Assembly (NCBI GenBank): GCA_946554525.1
Contig: CAMNSE010000003.1
Coordinates: forward strand, 28,683 to 92,682
Direction: 5' to 3'
Source: an uncultured Mycoplasma sp.
GTDB taxonomy: Bacteria > Bacillota_I > Bacilli_A > RF39 > UBA660
DNA: 64,000 bases
Shown: piece by piece, positions 2,220 through 51,891 of the stretch
Layout of the letters: each line of letters begins with the position of its first letter
Numbering within the stretch: position 1 is the first letter of the stretch
Translations under genes and position numbers: made by a program
The notes under the pieces: model-generated
Databases searched by the model: none
Seen by the model: only the letters and a program-made list of their open reading frames with translations
What the model was told of the DNA's origin: nothing

Positions 2220-2328
2220 CCCCCTTTCTTAAAATAGGTTCATATTATAGCACAAAACTATGGGTTTGTCTAGGTTTTGATTGACTACTTAAAAATTTAT
2301 AGTATAATTAATATTAGGAGGATAAAGA

Positions 2329-2919
2329 ATGAAAAAGAAAGAAAAAACTATTGCTCAAAAGCTTCATATGGATTTTAAAAAGTTATTACTAGGTAGTATT
2401 TTATTAAATATTTTATTTTTAATATTTGGAATTATTATTTATATGAATCCTTATATTGCAGCATCTACAGCTGTTATTATTACAGGTATTTATTTTCTTA
2501 TTTTTGGAGTATTTGCTATTTTAGAATTTTTATCAAGAAAAATGAGTCCAATATTTCAATATAAAGTTTTTAGCGGAGTACTTGTAATTATCATAGGAAT
2601 ATTTATGATGGTAAATCCATTTAAAATTGCTAAAATATTAACTTTTGCTTTAGGAATCTATTTAATTGTTGTTTCTTTAGTAAAAGTAGTAGAGGCTTTC
2701 AAATTAAAAAAGTATGGATATGATGGATGGATACTTATGTTAGTTACTGCTATTTTAATTCTGATATTTGGGGTATTTATTACAATTAACCCAATGGCAG
2801 CGTTAGATATTGTAAAAGCAGCAGGAATCTTTATCATTTTATCTAGTCTTTTAGAGGTTTGTAATCTTGTTATGGTATATGGTAAAGCAAAAGAAATTGT
2901 TAAGCTATTTGAAGCTTAA
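2329..2919 (+). CDS. HdeD/DUF308-family membrane protein
   Basis: 196 aa with six regularly spaced TM helices and repeated G(I/V)xxIxxG pattern. RBS AGGAGG upstream. Confidence 0.55.
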   Translation: MKKKEKTIAQKLHMDFKKLLLGSILLNILFLIFGIIIYMNPYIAASTAVIITGIYFLIFGVFAILEFLSRKMSPIFQYKVFSGVLVIIIGIFMMVNPFKIAKILTFALGIYLIVVSLVKVVEAFKLKKYGYDGWILMLVTAILILIFGVFITINPMAALDIVKAAGIFIILSSLLEVCNLVMVYGKAKEIVKLFEA

Positions 2920-2937
2920 TTTAGAGATAGACAAAAA

Positions 2938-2962
2938 GTAAACCTAGCAGGTTTATTTTTTG
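2938..2962 (+). terminator. Rho-independent terminator
   Basis: AAACCT-AGC-AGGTTT hairpin followed by a T-run. Confidence 0.6.
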
Positions 2963-2997
2963 TTTGTAAAACATAAAATTTTTCAGAGTAATTTTAG

Positions 2998-3026
2998 TTT
3001 ACAAATTTAAAAAAGTTTGTTATACT
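2998..3026 (+). promoter_or_regulatory. Sigma-A-type promoter of the rpsF-ssb-rpsR operon (about 75-nt leader follows)
   Basis: TTTACA, 17 nt spacer, TGT-TATACT (extended -10). The structured leader before the RBS could be the S6:S18 autoregulatory leader, not verified. Confidence 0.45.
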
Positions 3027-3102
3027 AAATCCGAGTATTAAATTACTCCTTGCTTTAAAGTTAATTTAAAGCCGTATTTTAGACCATAAGGAGGTGGAAT
3101 GA

Positions 3103-3393
3103 ATGACTAATTATGAAATTATGTTCATCGTAAAAACTACTATGGAAGCTGATAAAGTAAAAGCTACAGTTTCAGCTATGAAAAAAATCATCACTGATGG
3201 TAAAGGAAAAATAGTAGAAGAAAAAGAAATGGGCGAAAAAAAATTAGCATATCCAATTAAGAAAGAATTAAACGGATACTACTATGTTTTAAAAGTAGAA
3301 GCAACTAGTGATGTTGTAAGCGAATTTGATCGTCGTGCTTCAATTGATGAAACAGTATTAAGACATTTAATTATTAAATTAGATGAGGAGTAA
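3103..3393 (+). CDS. rpsF: 30S ribosomal protein S6
   Basis: MTNYEIMFIV... typical S6 N-terminus. Conserved rpsF-ssb-rpsR synteny. Confidence 0.95.
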   Translation: MTNYEIMFIVKTTMEADKVKATVSAMKKIITDGKGKIVEEKEMGEKKLAYPIKKELNGYYYVLKVEATSDVVSEFDRRASIDETVLRHLIIKLDEE

Positions 3394-5262: not shown

Positions 5263-6213
5263 ATGTTAAAGGTAGAAGAACTAGGAAAGTATGTAGATGT
5301 TTTAGATATACCAGAAGATTGGTATACTTATTATGATGAAGCTGTAAATAGTTTTGATGAATCTTGGTATAATGCTGAAGAATTAGAAAGCATAATTAGT
5401 TATTATAATTTTGATGAAGAATTTACAGAAAATTTAAGAGATTTATGGTATATAGTGAATTGTGATATTAATTTAATTTTTTTAGTTTACTTATGGTATT
5501 ATATTTTATATAAAGCTAAAATAAGTAAAAGAACTAAGTGGAAATATAATCTAAATTATTTTAGAAATAATGGCTCTTTATATATGCCAGTATTATCAAT
5601 GCTAATGGGTTATAAAATTCATGAAGATAATATGCGTAATTATGATGAAGAGCAAAGAAACATTCAAAAGAAAATAATTAAAGATATATGCACTTTTGAT
5701 GAAGACGTTTACAATATTCCAGGCATGCGTTTTAGTAATATGGAGTGGGGTTCTAGATTTATAAGAGGCCAGATTATCCAAATGGGGATATTACAATATG
5801 AGCTTAAAAAAGAATTCTTAGATGGCAATGATGTTATATTCATACATATACCAAGAGGAGCTAAATTAACTAAAGAAAATGTAGAAGCATCTTTTAAAAA
5901 TAAAGATAAAGTAATTAAACTATTTAATGTATCAAAAGATATTTTATTTGTATGTGAAAGTTGGCTTCTTAGTGAAGAGTTAAGAGATATTTTAGATGAT
6001 GATAGTAATATACTAAATTTTCAAAAGTATTTTAATATAATAGAGCTAAAGGAAAACACTAGTGATTTTGTTAAGTTTATATTTAATGAGCCATTTAATG
6101 TTGATAATTATGAATTATTAAAAGAGGATAATAAATTACAAAAGAAAATTAAAGATAAGCTAATAAAAAATGAAACGTTACATATTGGGTTTGGAATTTT
6201 AAAAGATATTTAA
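5263..6213 (+). CDS. Hypothetical protein
   Basis: Long ORF with RBS AGGTGG before ATG 5263. No motif I can name with confidence. Confidence 0.6.
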   Translation: MLKVEELGKYVDVLDIPEDWYTYYDEAVNSFDESWYNAEELESIISYYNFDEEFTENLRDLWYIVNCDINLIFLVYLWYYILYKAKISKRTKWKYNLNYFRNNGSLYMPVLSMLMGYKIHEDNMRNYDEEQRNIQKKIIKDICTFDEDVYNIPGMRFSNMEWGSRFIRGQIIQMGILQYELKKEFLDGNDVIFIHIPRGAKLTKENVEASFKNKDKVIKLFNVSKDILFVCESWLLSEELRDILDDDSNILNFQKYFNIIELKENTSDFVKFIFNEPFNVDNYELLKEDNKLQKKIKDKLIKNETLHIGFGILKDI

Positions 6214-11603: not shown

Positions 11604-11645
11604 AAAGAATCTGTGACTAAACAGTCATAGATTCTTTTATTTTTA
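11603..11645. terminator. Bidirectional terminator between convergent pnp and XRE genes
   Basis: 16-bp stem AAAAGAATCTGTGACT/AGTCATAGATTCTTTT (one G:T) flanked by A- and T-runs. Confidence 0.75.
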
Positions 11646-12075
11646 TTTTCTCATCTATTCTTCCTACTAAATAATCACAAGATATGTTAAATGTAGCGGA
11701 ATATTCTTTTAAGAAGGTAGTTAGTATTAAAGTTTCGCCATGTTCATATCTAGATATTACTCCATTGTCGGTATTTAATTTCTTAGCTAGCTTATCTTGA
11801 GTATATTTTCTTTCTTTACGAATCTCTTTTAATCTTTCTCCACATAATTTTTGATTAAATTTTGTTTTTATATTAGGATAATCCTTTGTATCAGTTAACT
11901 CTAAAACATAATCGATTGATACAGAAAACATATTGCAAAACTCTATTAATCTTTTTAAAGGTATAGTATTTATTTCACTTTCCCATATAGCATAGGTAGA
12001 ACGTGATACATGCAACTTTTTGCTTATTTCTAATTGAGATAAGTCATTCTCTAATCTAACTTTTTTTAAATTCAT
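11617..12075 (-). CDS. XRE-family transcriptional regulator with two HTH domains
   Basis: Two copies of the HTH_XRE pattern (LSQLEISKKLHVSRSTYAIWE; YTQDKLAKKLNTDNGVISRYEHG). Start placed at the internal Met (MNLKKVRL). Confidence 0.8.
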   Translation of the reverse strand: MNLKKVRLENDLSQLEISKKLHVSRSTYAIWESEINTIPLKRLIEFCNMFSVSIDYVLELTDTKDYPNIKTKFNQKLCGERLKEIRKERKYTQDKLAKKLNTDNGVISRYEHGETLILTTFLKEYSATFNISCDYLVGRIDEKIKIKESMTV

Positions 12076-12305: not shown

Positions 12306-13538
12306 ATGGAATTCGAAACAATAAAGAAAGATAATCGTAAGAAATTGGTAGTAGTAGTTATAGCAATACTTGCTATAGCATCAGTAGTGTTCTTTGTATC
12401 AACAAGAGCCAATTATAAAGCTGAACACAGATTAAACTTAATAAATAAAACTGTTAATTATAGTATAAGTGATTTAAATGTAGTAGCAATAAAGGTACAA
12501 AACTCAAGTGGTGGATATGATACTAGAAATACAGTGCCAACAAGTGGATACACACTAAGTAGTGAATCATATTGTGAAGTAAATGGAAATAGAGATACAA
12601 GTATACAATTAGAATATAAAGATGGTAAAGTAACAATTGGAGTATCTACTAAAGGAACTAAGTGTTATCTATTCTTTGATGCTCAAAAGACCGCATCACA
12701 AACATTACTAGCCAAAAATGAAATGGTAAATGAAAATGGATATAGATATGAAGGAGCTAATCCAAACAACTATATAACATTTAATAATGAATTATGGAGA
12801 ATAATCGGAGTATTTGAAGTAGAGACAACAGCGGGAACAAGAGAACAACTAGTAAAACTAATAAGAAATGAGTCTATAGGAAATATTAGATGGGATACAT
12901 ATGGAAGACTTGGTTCAAATGATTGGACCCAATCAGATCTAAAAACAATATTAAATGGACAATACTATAATGGAGTAGATATAAATTATACATATAGAAA
13001 TCCAAGTAATCCTTATGCAAGTTCTAATCCAACAGTATCTATAACAGGAAAAAACATTAATGATACAGCAAGAAACATGATAGAGAATGTAAAATGGAAT
13101 ATAGGTGGGGCATCAACATATGGCCTAACTGCATCGGCATTTTATACTGTAGAGCGAGGAACAACTGTATATAGTGGAAGACCAACAATATGGAATGGAT
13201 ATATAGGATTAATGTATCCAAGTGACTATGGATATGCAGTAGATAGTGCAAGTTGTGTAAGAACAACAACTTTAAATAATTATTATGATTCAAGTACATG
13301 TAAAACAAACAATTGGTTATTTAATAGTGGGGACCAATGGACCATAACTCCTCATTCTCCGCACAGCGACAACGTCTTTAGTGCGAACTACAGCGGCGGC
13401 GGCGGCTACGTTAGCCACAACTACGCGTTTTATGAGTATGGCGTGCGTCCATCTATATATCTAAAATCTAATGTATCTATAGTAGATAATGGAAAAGATG
13501 GTTCACAATCTAAACCATATGATTTAGTATTAAATTAA
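12306..13538 (+). CDS. N-terminally anchored secreted protein with a C-terminal DUF1566/DUF6273-like domain (W..TP....GVRP motif); paralogue of 50233..51891
   Basis: N-terminal TM helix. About 250 C-terminal aa align by eye to the 50233 CDS (NNELWRIIGVF, VKWNIGG, WNGYIGLMY.SDYGYA, GVRP..YLKSNVSI). Confidence 0.7.
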   Translation: MEFETIKKDNRKKLVVVVIAILAIASVVFFVSTRANYKAEHRLNLINKTVNYSISDLNVVAIKVQNSSGGYDTRNTVPTSGYTLSSESYCEVNGNRDTSIQLEYKDGKVTIGVSTKGTKCYLFFDAQKTASQTLLAKNEMVNENGYRYEGANPNNYITFNNELWRIIGVFEVETTAGTREQLVKLIRNESIGNIRWDTYGRLGSNDWTQSDLKTILNGQYYNGVDINYTYRNPSNPYASSNPTVSITGKNINDTARNMIENVKWNIGGASTYGLTASAFYTVERGTTVYSGRPTIWNGYIGLMYPSDYGYAVDSASCVRTTTLNNYYDSSTCKTNNWLFNSGDQWTITPHSPHSDNVFSANYSGGGGYVSHNYAFYEYGVRPSIYLKSNVSIVDNGKDGSQSKPYDLVLN

Positions 13539-13607
13539 GTATTAATTTCTGCCTATATAGCTTTTCTATTATATTATATATGGGCAGAAATGTTTCAAAT
13601 TTCATAT

Positions 13608-13701: not shown

Positions 13702-15783
13702 ATGTTAAGTAAGTTAAATGATAGACAAAGAGAAGCAGCTATGCATAAAGATGGTCCTTGCCTAGTAATAGCTGGGGCGGGTTCTGGTAAAACAAAAGTG
13801 CTTACTACTAGAATAGCTTGTCTTCTAAATGATGGAGTAAGTGACTACAACATTCTTGCTATTACATTTACTAATAAAGCAGCTAAAGAAATGAGAGAAA
13901 GATTAAATTTACTTGTTCCTGATAATCATGTTTTTGTAGGAACATTCCATTCTTTTGGATTGAAACTTTTAAGAGAAAATATTAGCTTACTTGGAATGGA
14001 TAAAAACTTTTCTATTTTAGATGCTGATGATGTATTGAGCTTAATAAAAAGAATTATGAAAGATCTTAATATTGATCCGAAAGAAATAAGTCCTTATTTT
14101 GTTAGAAGTAAAATTAGTTTTATTAAAAACGAATTATTAACTGATAGTGATTTAGATCGTTATTTTAATACTCCTCAGGAAAAAAGAGTTATAGAGATTT
14201 ACCATGAATATAAAAGTATTTTAAAGAAAAATAATTCTGTTGACTTTGATGATTTATTATCTCTTCCTGTGCATCTTTTAAAAGAACATGCAGAAGTATT
14301 AGAAAAGTATCAAGAGCATTTTAAATACATCTTAATTGATGAGTATCAAGATACCAATGAAGTACAATATAAACTTAGTCGGATGCTTGCTAGTAAATAT
14401 AAGAATTTATTTGTCGTGGGGGATGCAAACCAGTCAATTTATGCATTTAGAGGAGCAAATTTTAGAAATATTTTAGACTTTGAGAGTGATTATCCTGATG
14501 CTAAAGTAGTAGTCTTAGATCAAAATTACCGAAGTACTAAAAATATTTTAGACGCGGCTAATTCAGTAATTAAAAATAATAAAGAAAGAAAAGATATGGA
14601 ACTATATAGTACTCTTGGAGATGGAGTAAAAGTAAAATATATGCGTTCTTATGATGAGAAACATGAGATAACTTTAATTGTTGATGAAATAAAAAGATTA
14701 CTACTTGATGGTTATCATTATGAAGATATCGCCGTGTTTTATAGAACTAATGCACAATCACGTATAGTTGAAGAAGTAATATTAAAAGCTAATATGCCTT
14801 ATAAAGTAGTGGGGGCTTATTACTTCTATAATAGAAAAGAAATTAAAGATTTATTATGTTATTTAAGGCTTATTAATAATCCGAATGATGATATAAGTCT
14901 AAGAAGAGTAATTAACACTCCAAAAAGAAAAATTGGAGCTAAATCTATAGAGGAGTTAGATAAAGAAGCTAAGCTTGAGGGTATCTCCATGTTTGATGCT
15001 ATAAATTCTGGAAAAGAGCAAGAATTTAAAAACTTAATAATTGAATTACAAAACGACTTACTTAATTTATCTTTAACAGAATTTATTGATGTAGTCTTAG
15101 ATAAAAGTGGTTTAAAAAAAGAACTAGAAAGCGAAAAGACTTTAGAAGCCGATTTAAGATTAGAGAACTTAATGGAATTTAAAAGTATTACCGCTTCTTT
15201 TGAAGCTAGAACTGGTTCAGTTAACTTAAATGATTTTTTAGAAGAGATAAGTTTAATTGCGGATATATCTGAACATGAGAGTGATAGTGATGCTATAACT
15301 CTAATGACACTTCATAGTGCTAAAGGACTTGAATTCCCTGTCGTGTTTATTATTGGTATGGAAGAAGGAATTTTTCCCCACTCTAATGCTTTTTTAGAAG
15401 GGGATGGAGGTATCGAAGAAGAAAGACGTCTTTGCTATGTAGGATTTACTAGAGCTAAAGAAAGATTATATTTAACTAATGCTAAGAAAAGAATGCTATA
15501 TGGTAAAACAAATCAAAATCCACCTTCAAGATTTTTAGATGAAATTACTAAAGACGTAATGGAGGTTAGTAACTTTAGCATAAAAGAAGAAAAGGTAATT
15601 AATAAAAGTGAAATTTATAATGAGGAGGATACAGATTATAAAAATGGAGATGTTGTAATGCATCTAACTTATGGTAGAGGTGTAGTAATTGATACTGATG
15701 AGAAATTTGTAAGTGTAGCTTTTGCTAGAAACTTTGGCGTAAGAAAATTTTTGAAAAACTATAAAGGTTTAAGGAAAATGTAA
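13702..15783 (+). CDS. pcrA: ATP-dependent DNA helicase PcrA (UvrD family)
   Basis: AGAGSGKT Walker A, DEYQDTN, VGDANQSIYAFRGA, QNYRST, LMTLHSAKGLEFP, YVGFTRAK. Sits upstream of ligA as in Bacillus. Confidence 0.95.
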   Translation: MLSKLNDRQREAAMHKDGPCLVIAGAGSGKTKVLTTRIACLLNDGVSDYNILAITFTNKAAKEMRERLNLLVPDNHVFVGTFHSFGLKLLRENISLLGMDKNFSILDADDVLSLIKRIMKDLNIDPKEISPYFVRSKISFIKNELLTDSDLDRYFNTPQEKRVIEIYHEYKSILKKNNSVDFDDLLSLPVHLLKEHAEVLEKYQEHFKYILIDEYQDTNEVQYKLSRMLASKYKNLFVVGDANQSIYAFRGANFRNILDFESDYPDAKVVVLDQNYRSTKNILDAANSVIKNNKERKDMELYSTLGDGVKVKYMRSYDEKHEITLIVDEIKRLLLDGYHYEDIAVFYRTNAQSRIVEEVILKANMPYKVVGAYYFYNRKEIKDLLCYLRLINNPNDDISLRRVINTPKRKIGAKSIEELDKEAKLEGISMFDAINSGKEQEFKNLIIELQNDLLNLSLTEFIDVVLDKSGLKKELESEKTLEADLRLENLMEFKSITASFEARTGSVNLNDFLEEISLIADISEHESDSDAITLMTLHSAKGLEFPVVFIIGMEEGIFPHSNAFLEGDGGIEEERRLCYVGFTRAKERLYLTNAKKRMLYGKTNQNPPSRFLDEITKDVMEVSNFSIKEEKVINKSEIYNEEDTDYKNGDVVMHLTYGRGVVIDTDEKFVSVAFARNFGVRKFLKNYKGLRKM

Positions 15784-44085: not shown

Positions 44086-44103
44086 AGAAATTAGGTGGAT
44101 GGT

Positions 44104-46008
44104 ATGAAAAAGATATTATTTGGATTATTTTTATTTCTAATAATGCCTATTTGGGTAAGCGCCGCTAATTATGATATCACAGACTTTTTAGTTAAATCTC
44201 AGATTCTAGAAAATGGAGACTTAGAAGTAAGTGAACTAATTGTATTAAAAGGAGATTTTAATGGCTATGAAAGAGATTTACAATATGCAAATAGTAATTT
44301 AAATAATGATACATTTCTAAATAATAGATTATATAATGCAAGTGATATAACTAATGTTAAAATAGCAGCTAAAAAAGTAAGTGAAGTTGATTTTAATACT
44401 TTTACTGATCAAGATTTTCAGCTATTTGAAAGAGTTCCTAGTGCAATAAACGGGTATGTTGGTAAATATGTAGAATCTAGTATATATAATGGATATAGAT
44501 ATCGTATGTATTATCCTTCTCAAGATGAGACAGTTGCCTTTAATATTACTTATACAGTAAAAGATGCGGTTGTCATGCATGAAGATGTAGCAGAATTATA
44601 TTGGACATTTATTCCTGATGGATTTGAAGATGAATTAAAGCATATTGAAATTGAAGTGTATTTACCAAATTATGATAATAGTGATAATTTTCGTTTATGG
44701 GCGCATGGTAATTTAGGCGGTGTAGTAAATAAAATAGATAATAATGGAGTAAAAGCTAAAATAAATAGTGTTTTACCAGGAGAGTCAGTTGATATTAGAT
44801 TAACATTTGACAAATCTTTAATTACAAATATAAATGTGAAGAAAAGTTACACTGTGGCAATGGATAAAATTGTAGAGGTAGAAACTAAAAGGGCTGATGT
44901 AGCAAATAATCTTAGAAACGAATTACTTAGAAAATATAATTTTGTAAAATATGGGACTATAATACTTTATATAAGCATTGTTATTATAGGTGTATTCATT
45001 TATTTTAAGTATGGCAAAAGCCCTAAGTCGGGGTATTATTCAAAATATAATAGAGAGTTTATTGATGATTACAATGTAGAGGTTATTGATTATTTAATGA
45101 AAAGGAACATAACTTCTAATGCGATGAGTGCTTCAATTATGAATCTTATTTATAAAAAGAATATTAGTGCTGAAGAAATGAGCGAAGAAAGCAAAAAGAC
45201 AAAAGATTATAAATTTACTTTAGAAAATATGGAAGGAATTAATGAATCAGAAAAAATATTAATTGAATTTCTATTTGATAAAGTAGGGAAAAAATCATTA
45301 AATGAAGAAAATAAGAAAACTTTTACAACTAAAGATTTGAAGTCTTATGCAAAAGGCACTAAAACTTGCGATAAATTTATTGCTAGTTATACAAAATGGA
45401 AAAATAATGTGCTAAATATTGCTAAAAAAGAAGAATTTTATCAGAAAAGCTTTGTTCCGTTAGTATATGGTATTATAGCTGTCATTATATCTTTTATTAT
45501 ATTTGCTTGCGGAATTAATAATGGTGTAGATTTTATTCCTACTTACTTTTTATTATTTATAGCTATAGGGTTTTTAATGTATTGTATATTTATAGATAAA
45601 AAAACAATTAAGGGGAGTCTACACTATGATAAATGGAAAGCATTTAAAAATTTCTTAAATGATTTTGGATCTTTTGAGTTGAAAGAACTTCCAGAAATCG
45701 TATTATGGGAAAGGTATTTAGTTTATGCGACTATTTTTGGGCTGGCTGATAAAGTCCAAAAGAGTATGAATGTCCATATTAAAGAAATGGATTTAGAAAA
45801 TTATGATTATTATCCATCATTTGTTTATATTAATATGGGCCATGCTATAAATACAAGTGTTAATAATGCTTTATCTAGTGCGTATACTCATCAAGCCGCA
45901 AATTATTCTAATAGTCATTCAAGTTTTTCATCAGGCGGAGGCTTTGGTGGAGGATTCTCTTCCGGAGGCGGCTTTGGTGGAGGCGGAGGCGGAGGCCGAG
46001 GCTTTTAA
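44104..46008 (+). CDS. DUF2207-family membrane protein with Gly-rich C-terminal tail
   Basis: Signal peptide, large external domain, several TMs, tail SSGGGFGGGFSSGGGFGGGGGGGRGF. Classic partner of lemA. Confidence 0.8.
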   Translation: MKKILFGLFLFLIMPIWVSAANYDITDFLVKSQILENGDLEVSELIVLKGDFNGYERDLQYANSNLNNDTFLNNRLYNASDITNVKIAAKKVSEVDFNTFTDQDFQLFERVPSAINGYVGKYVESSIYNGYRYRMYYPSQDETVAFNITYTVKDAVVMHEDVAELYWTFIPDGFEDELKHIEIEVYLPNYDNSDNFRLWAHGNLGGVVNKIDNNGVKAKINSVLPGESVDIRLTFDKSLITNINVKKSYTVAMDKIVEVETKRADVANNLRNELLRKYNFVKYGTIILYISIVIIGVFIYFKYGKSPKSGYYSKYNREFIDDYNVEVIDYLMKRNITSNAMSASIMNLIYKKNISAEEMSEESKKTKDYKFTLENMEGINESEKILIEFLFDKVGKKSLNEENKKTFTTKDLKSYAKGTKTCDKFIASYTKWKNNVLNIAKKEEFYQKSFVPLVYGIIAVIISFIIFACGINNGVDFIPTYFLLFIAIGFLMYCIFIDKKTIKGSLHYDKWKAFKNFLNDFGSFELKELPEIVLWERYLVYATIFGLADKVQKSMNVHIKEMDLENYDYYPSFVYINMGHAINTSVNNALSSAYTHQAANYSNSHSSFSSGGGFGGGFSSGGGFGGGGGGGRGF

Positions 46009-50232: not shown

Positions 50233-51891
50233 ATGAATAAGAAAAGAATATTTATTATAGTAGGAATTATTGCTTTAGTTTTAGTAGGTGGTATATCACT
50301 TACATTTGCATATTTTTCAGTAGCAGATAAACAAACAGAAGCTAACCGTTTTAATAGTGGGTGTCTTTCTATTTCCCTAGAAAATGATAGTGATGCGATA
50401 GGACTAACTAATACTTATCCTATAACAGATATAGAAGGATTAGAGACAAAGCCGTATACTTTTACGATTACTAATAATTGTTCTACTAGTACGAGTTATC
50501 AAGTGAATTTAGAAAGCTTAAACCAAGCATCTAATACTTTAGCAGCTAATTATATAAAAGTTTCGTTATCACATGATACGATGGGAAATAAAATATCATT
50601 ATTAAGTAACTTAGATATAGCATCAAAAAGTATAACAGGATCTTATCAATCTAATAAATTATATACAGGAGTAATAAATGGTAATTCTTCAAAAACATTT
50701 AATTTAAGATTATGGGTAGATCATTCTACAACTATAGAACAAGCGAATAAAACATATTCATCAAAAATAAATGTTGTAGCTAATCCTGATATAGTAGTAG
50801 ATACTACACCTGATGTTACATTTACGAGTAGTGGTACAACACTAACAGGTACAACTACAGCAACAAATGTTAAATATTGTGTATCTGATGATAATATATG
50901 CACACCATCAACCTCAGTTACAGTATCAAATAACCGATTTAATATTACATTACCAGAAAAAACAACTAAACAATTAGTTTGTGCAACATTAAATAATACT
51001 AAAACGGTTTGTAGTGATGGCATAAAAACTAAGAAAACAGCAGTAGAAACATTAATTGCTAAAAATGAAATGGTACATGAAACATTTACAAATGATAGTG
51101 GAACATTAGTAGATACTGGATATAGATATGAAGGAAAAACCCAAAATAATTATGTTAGATTTAATAATGAGTTATGGAGAATAATTGGAGTATTTGATGT
51201 AGAAACAACACTAGGGAAAACAGAATCATTAATAAAACTTGTAAGAAATGAAGGTATAGGTTATATCAAATGGGATACTTTAGGCTCAAATGATTGGACA
51301 GATTCCGATATAAAAATGATATTAAATGGTCAATATTATAATGGAGAAGACATAAACTATACATATAGAAAAAGCAGTGATGGAATTGTATCGATAGCTG
51401 GAAAAAGCATAAATGATATAGCAAGAGAAATGATAGAAAGTGTAAAATGGAATATAGGAGGAGTTTCAGCACAAGAACAAATAGCATCAAAATATTATAT
51501 AGAAGAAAGAGGGACAATAGGAGGAAAGTCTAACCCAAGCGTAATAACATGGAATGGACATATAGGATTAATGTATGCAAGTGACTATGGATATGCAGCA
51601 GATAGTACTAACTGTGCAAGAACAACAACCTTAAATAAATATGGTGATACAAGCTCATGCAAAACGAATAACTGGTTATCTAATGGTTACTCACAATTGA
51701 CATTAACGTCTAATTCCTCTGACCTTTATTTCACTTTTTATGTATACTCGAATGGTAGCATTTACAGGTCTGGCAATGTGACTAGCAGTTACGGTGTGCG
51801 CCCAGCTTTATATCTAAAGTCTAATGTATCAATTATTAATAATGGCAAAGATGGTTCATTCGCAAACCCATATGATTTAGAGTTAGGTTAA
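50233..51891 (+). CDS. Secreted protein with SipW-type (AYF) signal peptide and C-terminal DUF1566/DUF6273-like domain; paralogue of 12306..13538
   Basis: N-terminus KKRIFIIVGIIALVLVGGISLTFAYFSVADKQ (TasA/camelysin-like signal). C-terminal half aligns to the 12306 CDS. AGGAG RBS before ATG 50233. Confidence 0.75.
   Translation: MNKKRIFIIVGIIALVLVGGISLTFAYFSVADKQTEANRFNSGCLSISLENDSDAIGLTNTYPITDIEGLETKPYTFTITNNCSTSTSYQVNLESLNQASNTLAANYIKVSLSHDTMGNKISLLSNLDIASKSITGSYQSNKLYTGVINGNSSKTFNLRLWVDHSTTIEQANKTYSSKINVVANPDIVVDTTPDVTFTSSGTTLTGTTTATNVKYCVSDDNICTPSTSVTVSNNRFNITLPEKTTKQLVCATLNNTKTVCSDGIKTKKTAVETLIAKNEMVHETFTNDSGTLVDTGYRYEGKTQNNYVRFNNELWRIIGVFDVETTLGKTESLIKLVRNEGIGYIKWDTLGSNDWTDSDIKMILNGQYYNGEDINYTYRKSSDGIVSIAGKSINDIAREMIESVKWNIGGVSAQEQIASKYYIEERGTIGGKSNPSVITWNGHIGLMYASDYGYAADSTNCARTTTLNKYGDTSSCKTNNWLSNGYSQLTLTSNSSDLYFTFYVYSNGSIYRSGNVTSSYGVRPALYLKSNVSIINNGKDGSFANPYDLELG

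Follow-up and report, generated by a model that had tools for sequence, protein, structure and literature searches.

A probable retroelement-written variable region in a chromosomal surface-protein gene of an uncultured Mycoplasma sp.

The prototype of the diversity-generating retroelements (DGRs) is the one known from Bordetella phage BPP-1, which comprises Mtd, bAvd, Brt, a template repeat (TR) with its variable region (VR), and an initiation of mutagenic homing (IMH) element. Closer to the case presented here are the DGR targets with a DUF6273 domain found in human-gut phages, i.e., the tentaclins and Mtd-P1-like targets (PMC10743442), the targets of Faecalibacterium prophages (PMC11792537) and those of the Toutatisvirus hotspot (bioRxiv 10.1101/2024.10.15.618418). 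In these works DUF6273 is described as C-lectin-like and as a DGR target that carries the VR at its C-terminal end. The same domain forms the N-terminal part of the immunoglobulin A (IgA) peptidase of Thomasclavelia ramosa (structure 9qa6; PMC12402451), and cellular DGRs with remote or multiple targets have also been reported (cyanobacterial, PMC7517822; PMC8144416). Here we analyze a stretch of 64,000 nucleotides (hereafter the window) from an uncultured Mycoplasma sp. (assembly GCA_946554525.1, contig CAMNSE010000003.1, positions 28,683 to 92,682). In it, the gene at 12306..13538 (forward strand, 410 amino acids) appears to be a DGR target. The segment 13347..13451 of this gene, 35 codons that run from ACT CCT to CGT CCA (residues 348-382), was delimited as a VR by its composition, its hypervariability and its collinearity with the VRs and TRs of relatives, and we are highly confident that a DGR wrote it.

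Codon signature of the patch and its counterparts in DGR cassettes

The original prediction had pointed to a GC-rich stretch at 13359-13451, dominated by codons ending in C (NNC) and close to the C-terminus of the encoded protein, and its counts are exact. Fifty-four of the 93 nucleotides are G or C (58.1%) in a window of 27.7% G+C, and NNC codons make up 17 of the first 22 and 18 of all 31. Stretches of 93 nt across the window have a mean G+C of 27.7% with a standard deviation (SD) of 5.9%, and the patch is ca. 5 SD higher. In the rest of the open reading frame (ORF) 12306-13538, third-position C occurs in only 22 of 380 codons (Fisher p = 1e-12). When the patch peptide was recoded with the codon usage of the window, its G+C came to 0.366 ± 0.020, with a maximum of 0.452 in 20,000 draws, against the observed 0.581 (z = 10.7), and an NNC fraction of 0.08 was expected where 0.58 is observed; the control, a segment just upstream, gave z = -1.7 in the same test. 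Because the same peptide, once recoded, stays so far below the observed G+C, the excess is entirely one of synonymous codon choice and not of amino-acid content. One other 93-nt stretch of the window, 45914-46006 at the end of ORF 44095-46008, shares this top G+C value; it encodes a Gly-rich tail (SSGGGFGGGFSSGGGFGGGGGGGRGF), and its G+C therefore comes from amino-acid content and is not a DGR-like pattern.

The codons of the VR show what would be expected of AAY templating, i.e., a fixed third position, varied first two positions and few K, E, Q, M or W: in the peptide (PHSDNVFSANYSGGGGYVSHNYAFYEYGVRP) Glu occurs once, and K, Q, M and W are absent. The patch is indeed C-terminal, lying between QWTITP and GVRPSIYLKSN of the 410-residue product, that is, at the 3' end of a coding gene and within a putative C-lectin-like ligand-binding domain. 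In alignments of the family the corresponding flanks, QWT(L/I)TP and GVRPS(I/L)YLKSN, are conserved and enclose ca. 30 hypervariable residues. Selection acting locally on the mRNA or the protein (for a structural RNA, or for a codon-usage or translation-pausing signal) might be imagined to create such a patch with no templated mutagenesis, and in principle a stable fold could form from a GC-rich island within an AT-rich gene. Nothing specific speaks for this and we find it hardly credible, as the NNC pattern persists among homologues with hypervariable peptides, the reverse of what is expected of a conserved RNA or protein element, and explicit TR templates exist in relatives.

These relatives come from 83 metagenome loci in total, 80 of them a later set mostly from human gut. 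The reverse transcriptase (RT) lies beside the target in 16 of the 83, mostly together with Avd. One of them, L121 (a gut metagenome in ENA), contains a homologue 51% identical to the window target, with the same divergent regulator carrying two helix-turn-helix (HTH) domains upstream and, in order 3' of the target, bAvd (PF22296), an RT that contains the motifs IGNLTSQ and YMDD, a TR of 92 nt and another target paralogue. In this homologue the VR occupies the position that the patch has in the window gene. The parts list of BPP-1 is thus repeated among the relatives: a C-terminal VR, bAvd, an RT with [I/L]GxxxSQ, an adenine-specific TR and a VR whose 3' end is GC-rich. TR/VR pairs are present in L121, L127, L133, L136, L138 and L169, and the differences between TR and VR fall on adenines in a large majority (20 against 1 elsewhere both in L136 and in L127, 13 against 1 in L169 and 13 against 2 in L138). 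Two near-identical RT-linked strains, L135 and L152, differ at 20 of 93 positions in the VR, always at codon positions 1-2, and at 24 of 490 in the flanks.

The homology of the window patch to these bona fide VRs is detailed. In the relatives, TR/VR homology starts at ACN CCN (Thr-Pro) and ends at a GC-rich CGT CCA (Arg-Pro), which are the limits of the window patch. Codon by codon, the window VR matches the TR scaffold of the family (ACN CCN .. TCN .. GTN TTY .. GGC .. GTN .. GCG .. TAT GGC .. CGT CCA), and its NNC codons fall where the TRs of relatives have AAC or AAT. With a threshold of G+C >= 0.45 and NNC >= 0.35, 57 of the 90 unique VR-equivalent regions found in relatives bear the signature, another 19 are intermediate and the other 14 lie at background level. 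The reading of the patch as a DGR variable region, made originally from the window alone, is much reinforced by these canonical cassettes, with their adenine-specific differences and identical limits. The 3' boundary of the VR is the GC-rich GGCGTGCGTCCA (13439..13451, forward strand), and TR/VR identity in relatives stops at the equivalent GC-rich stretch: GGTGCCCGTCCA in L121, GGCGTGTGGCCAG in L169 and GCTGTGTCCCCCGCC in L127. This boundary, which had been likened to an IMH, coincides with the end of TR/VR homology in relatives; it is a candidate, and its role as an IMH is putative.

The patch would then have been written as follows. The RT of a DGR would once have made cDNA from an AAC/AAT-rich TR, misincorporating at template adenines, and the mutated cDNA would have taken the place of the corresponding segment of the target gene (mutagenic retrohoming). 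Such a process would leave a third-position C that is fixed next to randomised first and second positions, G+C-rich constant codons taken over from the TR and, at the GC-rich stretch, a 3' boundary that is sharp. The principal alternative at this level is that the segment was horizontally acquired or gene-converted, e.g., from a donor of higher G+C, with no DGR history. Gene conversion and mosaicism among paralogues do appear to be frequent in the family, as judged by the alignments: L142 (9666-10555) and L149 (ca. 2240-3170) share a tract of ca. 900 nt with a single difference, in surroundings that are 65-80% identical (65-79% at the 5' end and ca. 80% just downstream of the VR), and conversion between paralogues could have brought a VR written elsewhere into the window gene. 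We nevertheless regard this alternative as very improbable. The G+C excess is not even; it sits in the third-position C of codons that vary at the first two positions. The patch has the TR/VR limits of its relatives, its constant codons agree with the family TR scaffold, and the same patch occupies the same place in the 57 of 90 regions just mentioned. A donor without a DGR would not yield these features, and if the donor had been a DGR-linked paralogue the segment would still be a DGR product.

Some observations weigh against a DGR origin. A cognate TR was sought in the IMG/VR viral contigs and the JGI metagenomes, with patterns in which each position could be the VR base or A and third-position C was fixed, and was not found in either. 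The VR itself had no match there, which means that the source strain is not in these collections. Because no cognate TR was found, we infer the adenine specificity of the window VR from its relatives. Compared with their heterologous TRs, the window VR is identical at 24 of 30 non-A columns and at 17 of 28 A columns, a trend only (p = 0.15). In addition, the protein collection holds no strain variants of the target protein, whose cluster has one member.

Three observations on the DGRs of relatives are added here. The motif TTAAGG(C/T)TA(C)GGCT was found 20-45 nt past the TR in L121 (ca. 13365-13385), L136, L127 and L169 (3300-3320), and may belong to the DGR RNA spacer used for priming; in the window, the TR-flank motif TTAAGGYTAYGGCT does not occur above chance. 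L134 (3879-3971 and 7424-7516) and L141 (4027-4119 and 7575-7667) contain identical 93-nt VRs on both sides of an Avd-RT cassette, ca. 3.5 kb apart, which may result from very recent conversion or from the assembly. Finally, the VR-equivalent segment at 10619-10714 of L153 and those of L158, L160 and L164 (also L154 and L159) have no GC/NNC signature (G+C 0.31-0.33); from strain to strain, 5-6 of their 96 positions nevertheless differ, against 0-1 in the 490-nt flanks. These changes affect codon positions 1-2 (GTA/GCG/GGG, TTT/GTT, GAT/TAT, GAT/AAT, TAT/CAT), and may stem from an AAT-templated diversification with no GC signature or from tandem paralogues exchanging sequence.

The target protein and its fold

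The target protein is an exact match to an entry (P0001) of the public protein collection, on a contig of 106,558 bp that also bears the paralogue described below, and its family has more than 7,700 matches in the same collection. The AlphaFold model of the target (predicted local distance difference test, pLDDT, 82.8) consists of a helix (residues 11-36), a beta-sandwich (58-126) and a C-terminal domain (145-410) mostly with pLDDT >90. The helix, encoded at 12336..12413 (forward strand), is assigned by DSSP in the model and is hydrophobic (KKLVVVVIAILAIASVVFFVS), so that it is predicted to be a transmembrane or signal-anchor helix; the product is accordingly modelled as a membrane-anchored surface protein. 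The VR lies in the confident C-terminal domain, modelled as a beta-hairpin with strands at 356-361 and 368-373. The domain would thus present the VR as a hairpin on its surface, presumably the site of ligand binding.

The C-terminal domain (12738..13535, forward strand) is a putative DUF6273-like ligand-binding domain, on the grounds of a weak Pfam match, of the matches of other family members and of Foldseek. Pfam DUF6273 (PF19789) gives the target protein E = 0.04 and 14.2 bits, under the gathering threshold of 23.5 bits, and the paralogue 18.3 bits, also under it; among 70 family members, E < 0.01 was obtained for 19, the best with 1.7e-4. By structure the similarity is much clearer. Foldseek against BFVD retrieves many DUF6273 phage proteins (E 1.4e-7 to 1.5e-5, probability 1.00), and against the PDB the one solved structure that matches significantly is 9qa6, the IgA peptidase of T. 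ramosa (E = 4e-6 over 309 columns), which likewise lies at the surface of a gut Firmicute with low G+C. That DUF6273 domain, unlike ours, is joined to an M64 peptidase, and no diversification by a DGR is known for it. There is no detectable sequence similarity between the two proteins, and a sequence profile search of the PDB with the target found nothing. The domain is best seen from its model as a divergent relative of DUF6273, having the DUF6273 fold and remaining outside the Pfam family by score. The original prediction had placed the patch in a C-type-lectin/DUF1566-fold target. Its DUF1566 part does not stand, the domain being of DUF6273 type; as to the lectin part, the literature calls DUF6273 C-lectin-like, and classical C-type lectins were only weak and partial fold matches of the target.

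With the phage DUF6273 targets, the window target shares the C-terminal position of the VR, its presentation in a surface beta-hairpin (in the model) and the AAC/AAY-templated codon signature. Unlike them, it is chromosomal, predicted to be membrane-anchored at its N-terminus and not part of a phage tail or capsid, has no relatives that we could find in IMG/VR, and scores under the Pfam gathering threshold.

Orphan or remote target

As the original prediction had stated, the 64 kb of the window contain neither RT, nor Avd, nor TR. Searches by tblastn with the RT and Avd of L121 gave a best E of about 1 and blastn with the L121 TR gave no match, while an A-degenerate scan for a TR matched at best 79 of 102 positions in an A-rich background (55 ± 6). 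In this the locus departs from BPP-1, as it does in having no GC-rich hairpin close behind the VR in the window and no Mtd among the fold matches of its target. It had been concluded earlier that any DGR would have to act in trans. This stands as one of two options, the other, at least as likely, being that the VR is a frozen orphan whose local cassette has been lost. We take the orphan as the best explanation overall, giving it about an even chance; with the DGR origin granted, it would have slightly better prospects than that, and service in trans would be a strong second candidate.

Absence of a nearby RT is far from exceptional in the family. Where signature-bearing VRs in relatives are flanked by at least 5 kb on either side, an RT is nearby in 7 and missing in 4, and with at least 3 kb the numbers are 11 and 9, i.e., about 40% of these VRs are without a nearby RT. 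The site itself can be followed, since the arrangement S15-pnp-target of the window recurs in L169, L178, L187 and L189. In L169 a clean TR follows the VR at a distance of 300 nt, and the contig then ends; in L189, 80% identical to L169, neither RT nor TR lies within 10 kb. Between L189 and L192 the VR differs at 0 of 93 positions and the flanks at 9 of 490. By comparison of sequences, this site (L169, L189, L192) favours the loss of a cassette that was once local. Target genes that persist without their DGR are known in phages (bioRxiv 10.1101/2024.10.15.618418), and the phage DUF6273 targets resemble the window gene both in this and in that they can be kilobases away from the TR.

Several facts count against the orphan. 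VRs next to an RT are equally static between strains in L138, L139 and L140, which makes the static VR of L189 and L192 weak evidence for it. The signature of the window VR is undecayed, with an NNC fraction of 0.53-0.58 like that of fresh TR copies; this says only that the VR was written recently relative to synonymous drift, and nothing more. Remote targets are, besides, a recognised DGR configuration (PMC8144416, PMC7517822), with a DUF6273 target 17.5 kb from its TR on record (bioRxiv 10.1101/2024.10.15.618418). As a mechanism of loss we considered deletion of the cassette by recombination between the two flanking targets, comparing L142 with L149; L142 turned out to be a mosaic and not the simple chimera predicted, so that such a deletion is hypothetical. 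The NNC fraction was also tried as a clock of decay and rejected, as the AAT-rich TR of L138 gives a clean VR with an NNC of 0.32.

The same facts feed the other option, in which a distant DGR, perhaps with a third paralogue or in a prophage, would have a cognate TR of 102 nt and would still rewrite 13347-13451 in trans by way of the GC-rich boundary. We consider such a live remote target possible, though short of an even chance. The undecayed signature, the VRs lacking an RT nearby (4 of 11, or 9 of 20, with the longer and shorter flanks, respectively) and the remote targets documented elsewhere all agree with it. So does the case of L149, where the VR at 3174-3266 has 17-18 non-adenine mismatches to the TR (ca. 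5263-5355) by the RT, so that the adjacent TR was not its template. This VR and the one of the RT-less L142 (10613-10705) have another scaffold in common and differ at 19 positions, all of them codon positions 1-2. TRs other than the adjacent one have therefore written VRs in this target family. On the other side, no cognate TR turned up in IMG/VR or the JGI metagenomes, collections that are without the source strain, and the TR that L169 keeps at the syntenic site suggests that the TR in the lineage of the window was local and was then lost. A further difficulty is posed by the second member of the family in the window.

This paralogue (P0043, 552 amino acids; 50233..51891, forward strand) has a different N-terminal part with a SipW/TasA-like signal peptide. 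As had been noted from the outset, it retains the flanks and the GGTGTGCGCCCA boundary and has a weaker enrichment in C-ending codons. Its VR-equivalent segment, 96 nt plus a Pro codon (51706..51804, forward strand), has at 51706-51801 a G+C of 0.417 against an expected 0.289 (z = 6.1) and an NNC fraction of 0.31 against 0.08. The segment could be either an older VR or a VR written from an AAT-richer TR as in L138; the clean, TR-matched VR of that locus at NNC 0.32 means that the weaker signature need not be decay. The VR of the target gene being 102 nt and that of the paralogue 96 nt, one TR cannot serve both. In the cellular DGRs with remote targets, VR paralogues are likewise scattered away from the RT. 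Those remote VRs have a known matching TR, whereas none was found for the window VR, and its diversification in trans is putative.

Genomic surroundings and significance

The target gene is chromosomal and sits among the housekeeping genes S15, pnp and pcrA, the rest of the window being ordinary-looking chromosome. Past its stop codon there is a hairpin, a probable terminator, formed by ATTTCTGCCTATATA and TATATGGGCAGAAAT (13545..13591, forward strand; inverted repeat I1, with 15-nt arms, 93% complementary). The next ORF, pcrA, starts at 13702, and the 163 nt between the two genes are too few for a remnant of the cassette to fit there, which speaks for the orphan reading. Upstream and divergently transcribed is the two-HTH regulator of the XRE type announced by the original prediction (11617..12075, reverse strand), in which Pfam HTH_3 was found twice (E = 1e-23). 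Homologues 47% identical to it are in the same position in L121 (9249-9731, reverse strand), with a DGR, and in L124 (4088-4543, reverse strand), where no RT is present on the 13-kb contig. From this synteny the regulator looks like a conserved partner of the target's subfamily, and it possibly controls expression of the target.

DGRs, DUF6273 targets and remote or orphan VRs are already described biology, and for this reason the gain is incremental. What differs here is the setting, i.e., a chromosomal gene with a product predicted to be membrane-anchored, in a large and mostly unannotated family of low-G+C gut Firmicutes, with a conserved two-HTH neighbour. In a very AT-rich genome, the island of third-position C lets a DGR variable region be identified in raw sequence alone, also where the retroelement is missing. 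DGR surveys based on contigs are known to overlook remote targets (PMC8144416), and those that need RT and VR on one contig will miss the signature-bearing VRs of this target family that have no RT nearby (ca. 40%). The findings point to the chromosomal surface proteins of this family in gut Firmicutes as DGR targets, a very large group (>7,700 detected) that is for the most part unannotated. It is a speculative and rather unlikely picture, but the cassette could sit between two freely recombining target paralogues, its gain or loss switching hypermutation on and off. The genes left without an RT would be successful variants, deliberately ‘frozen’, or would be kept variable by a distant TR, and genomes would mix live, remote and frozen VRs under a conserved two-HTH regulator.

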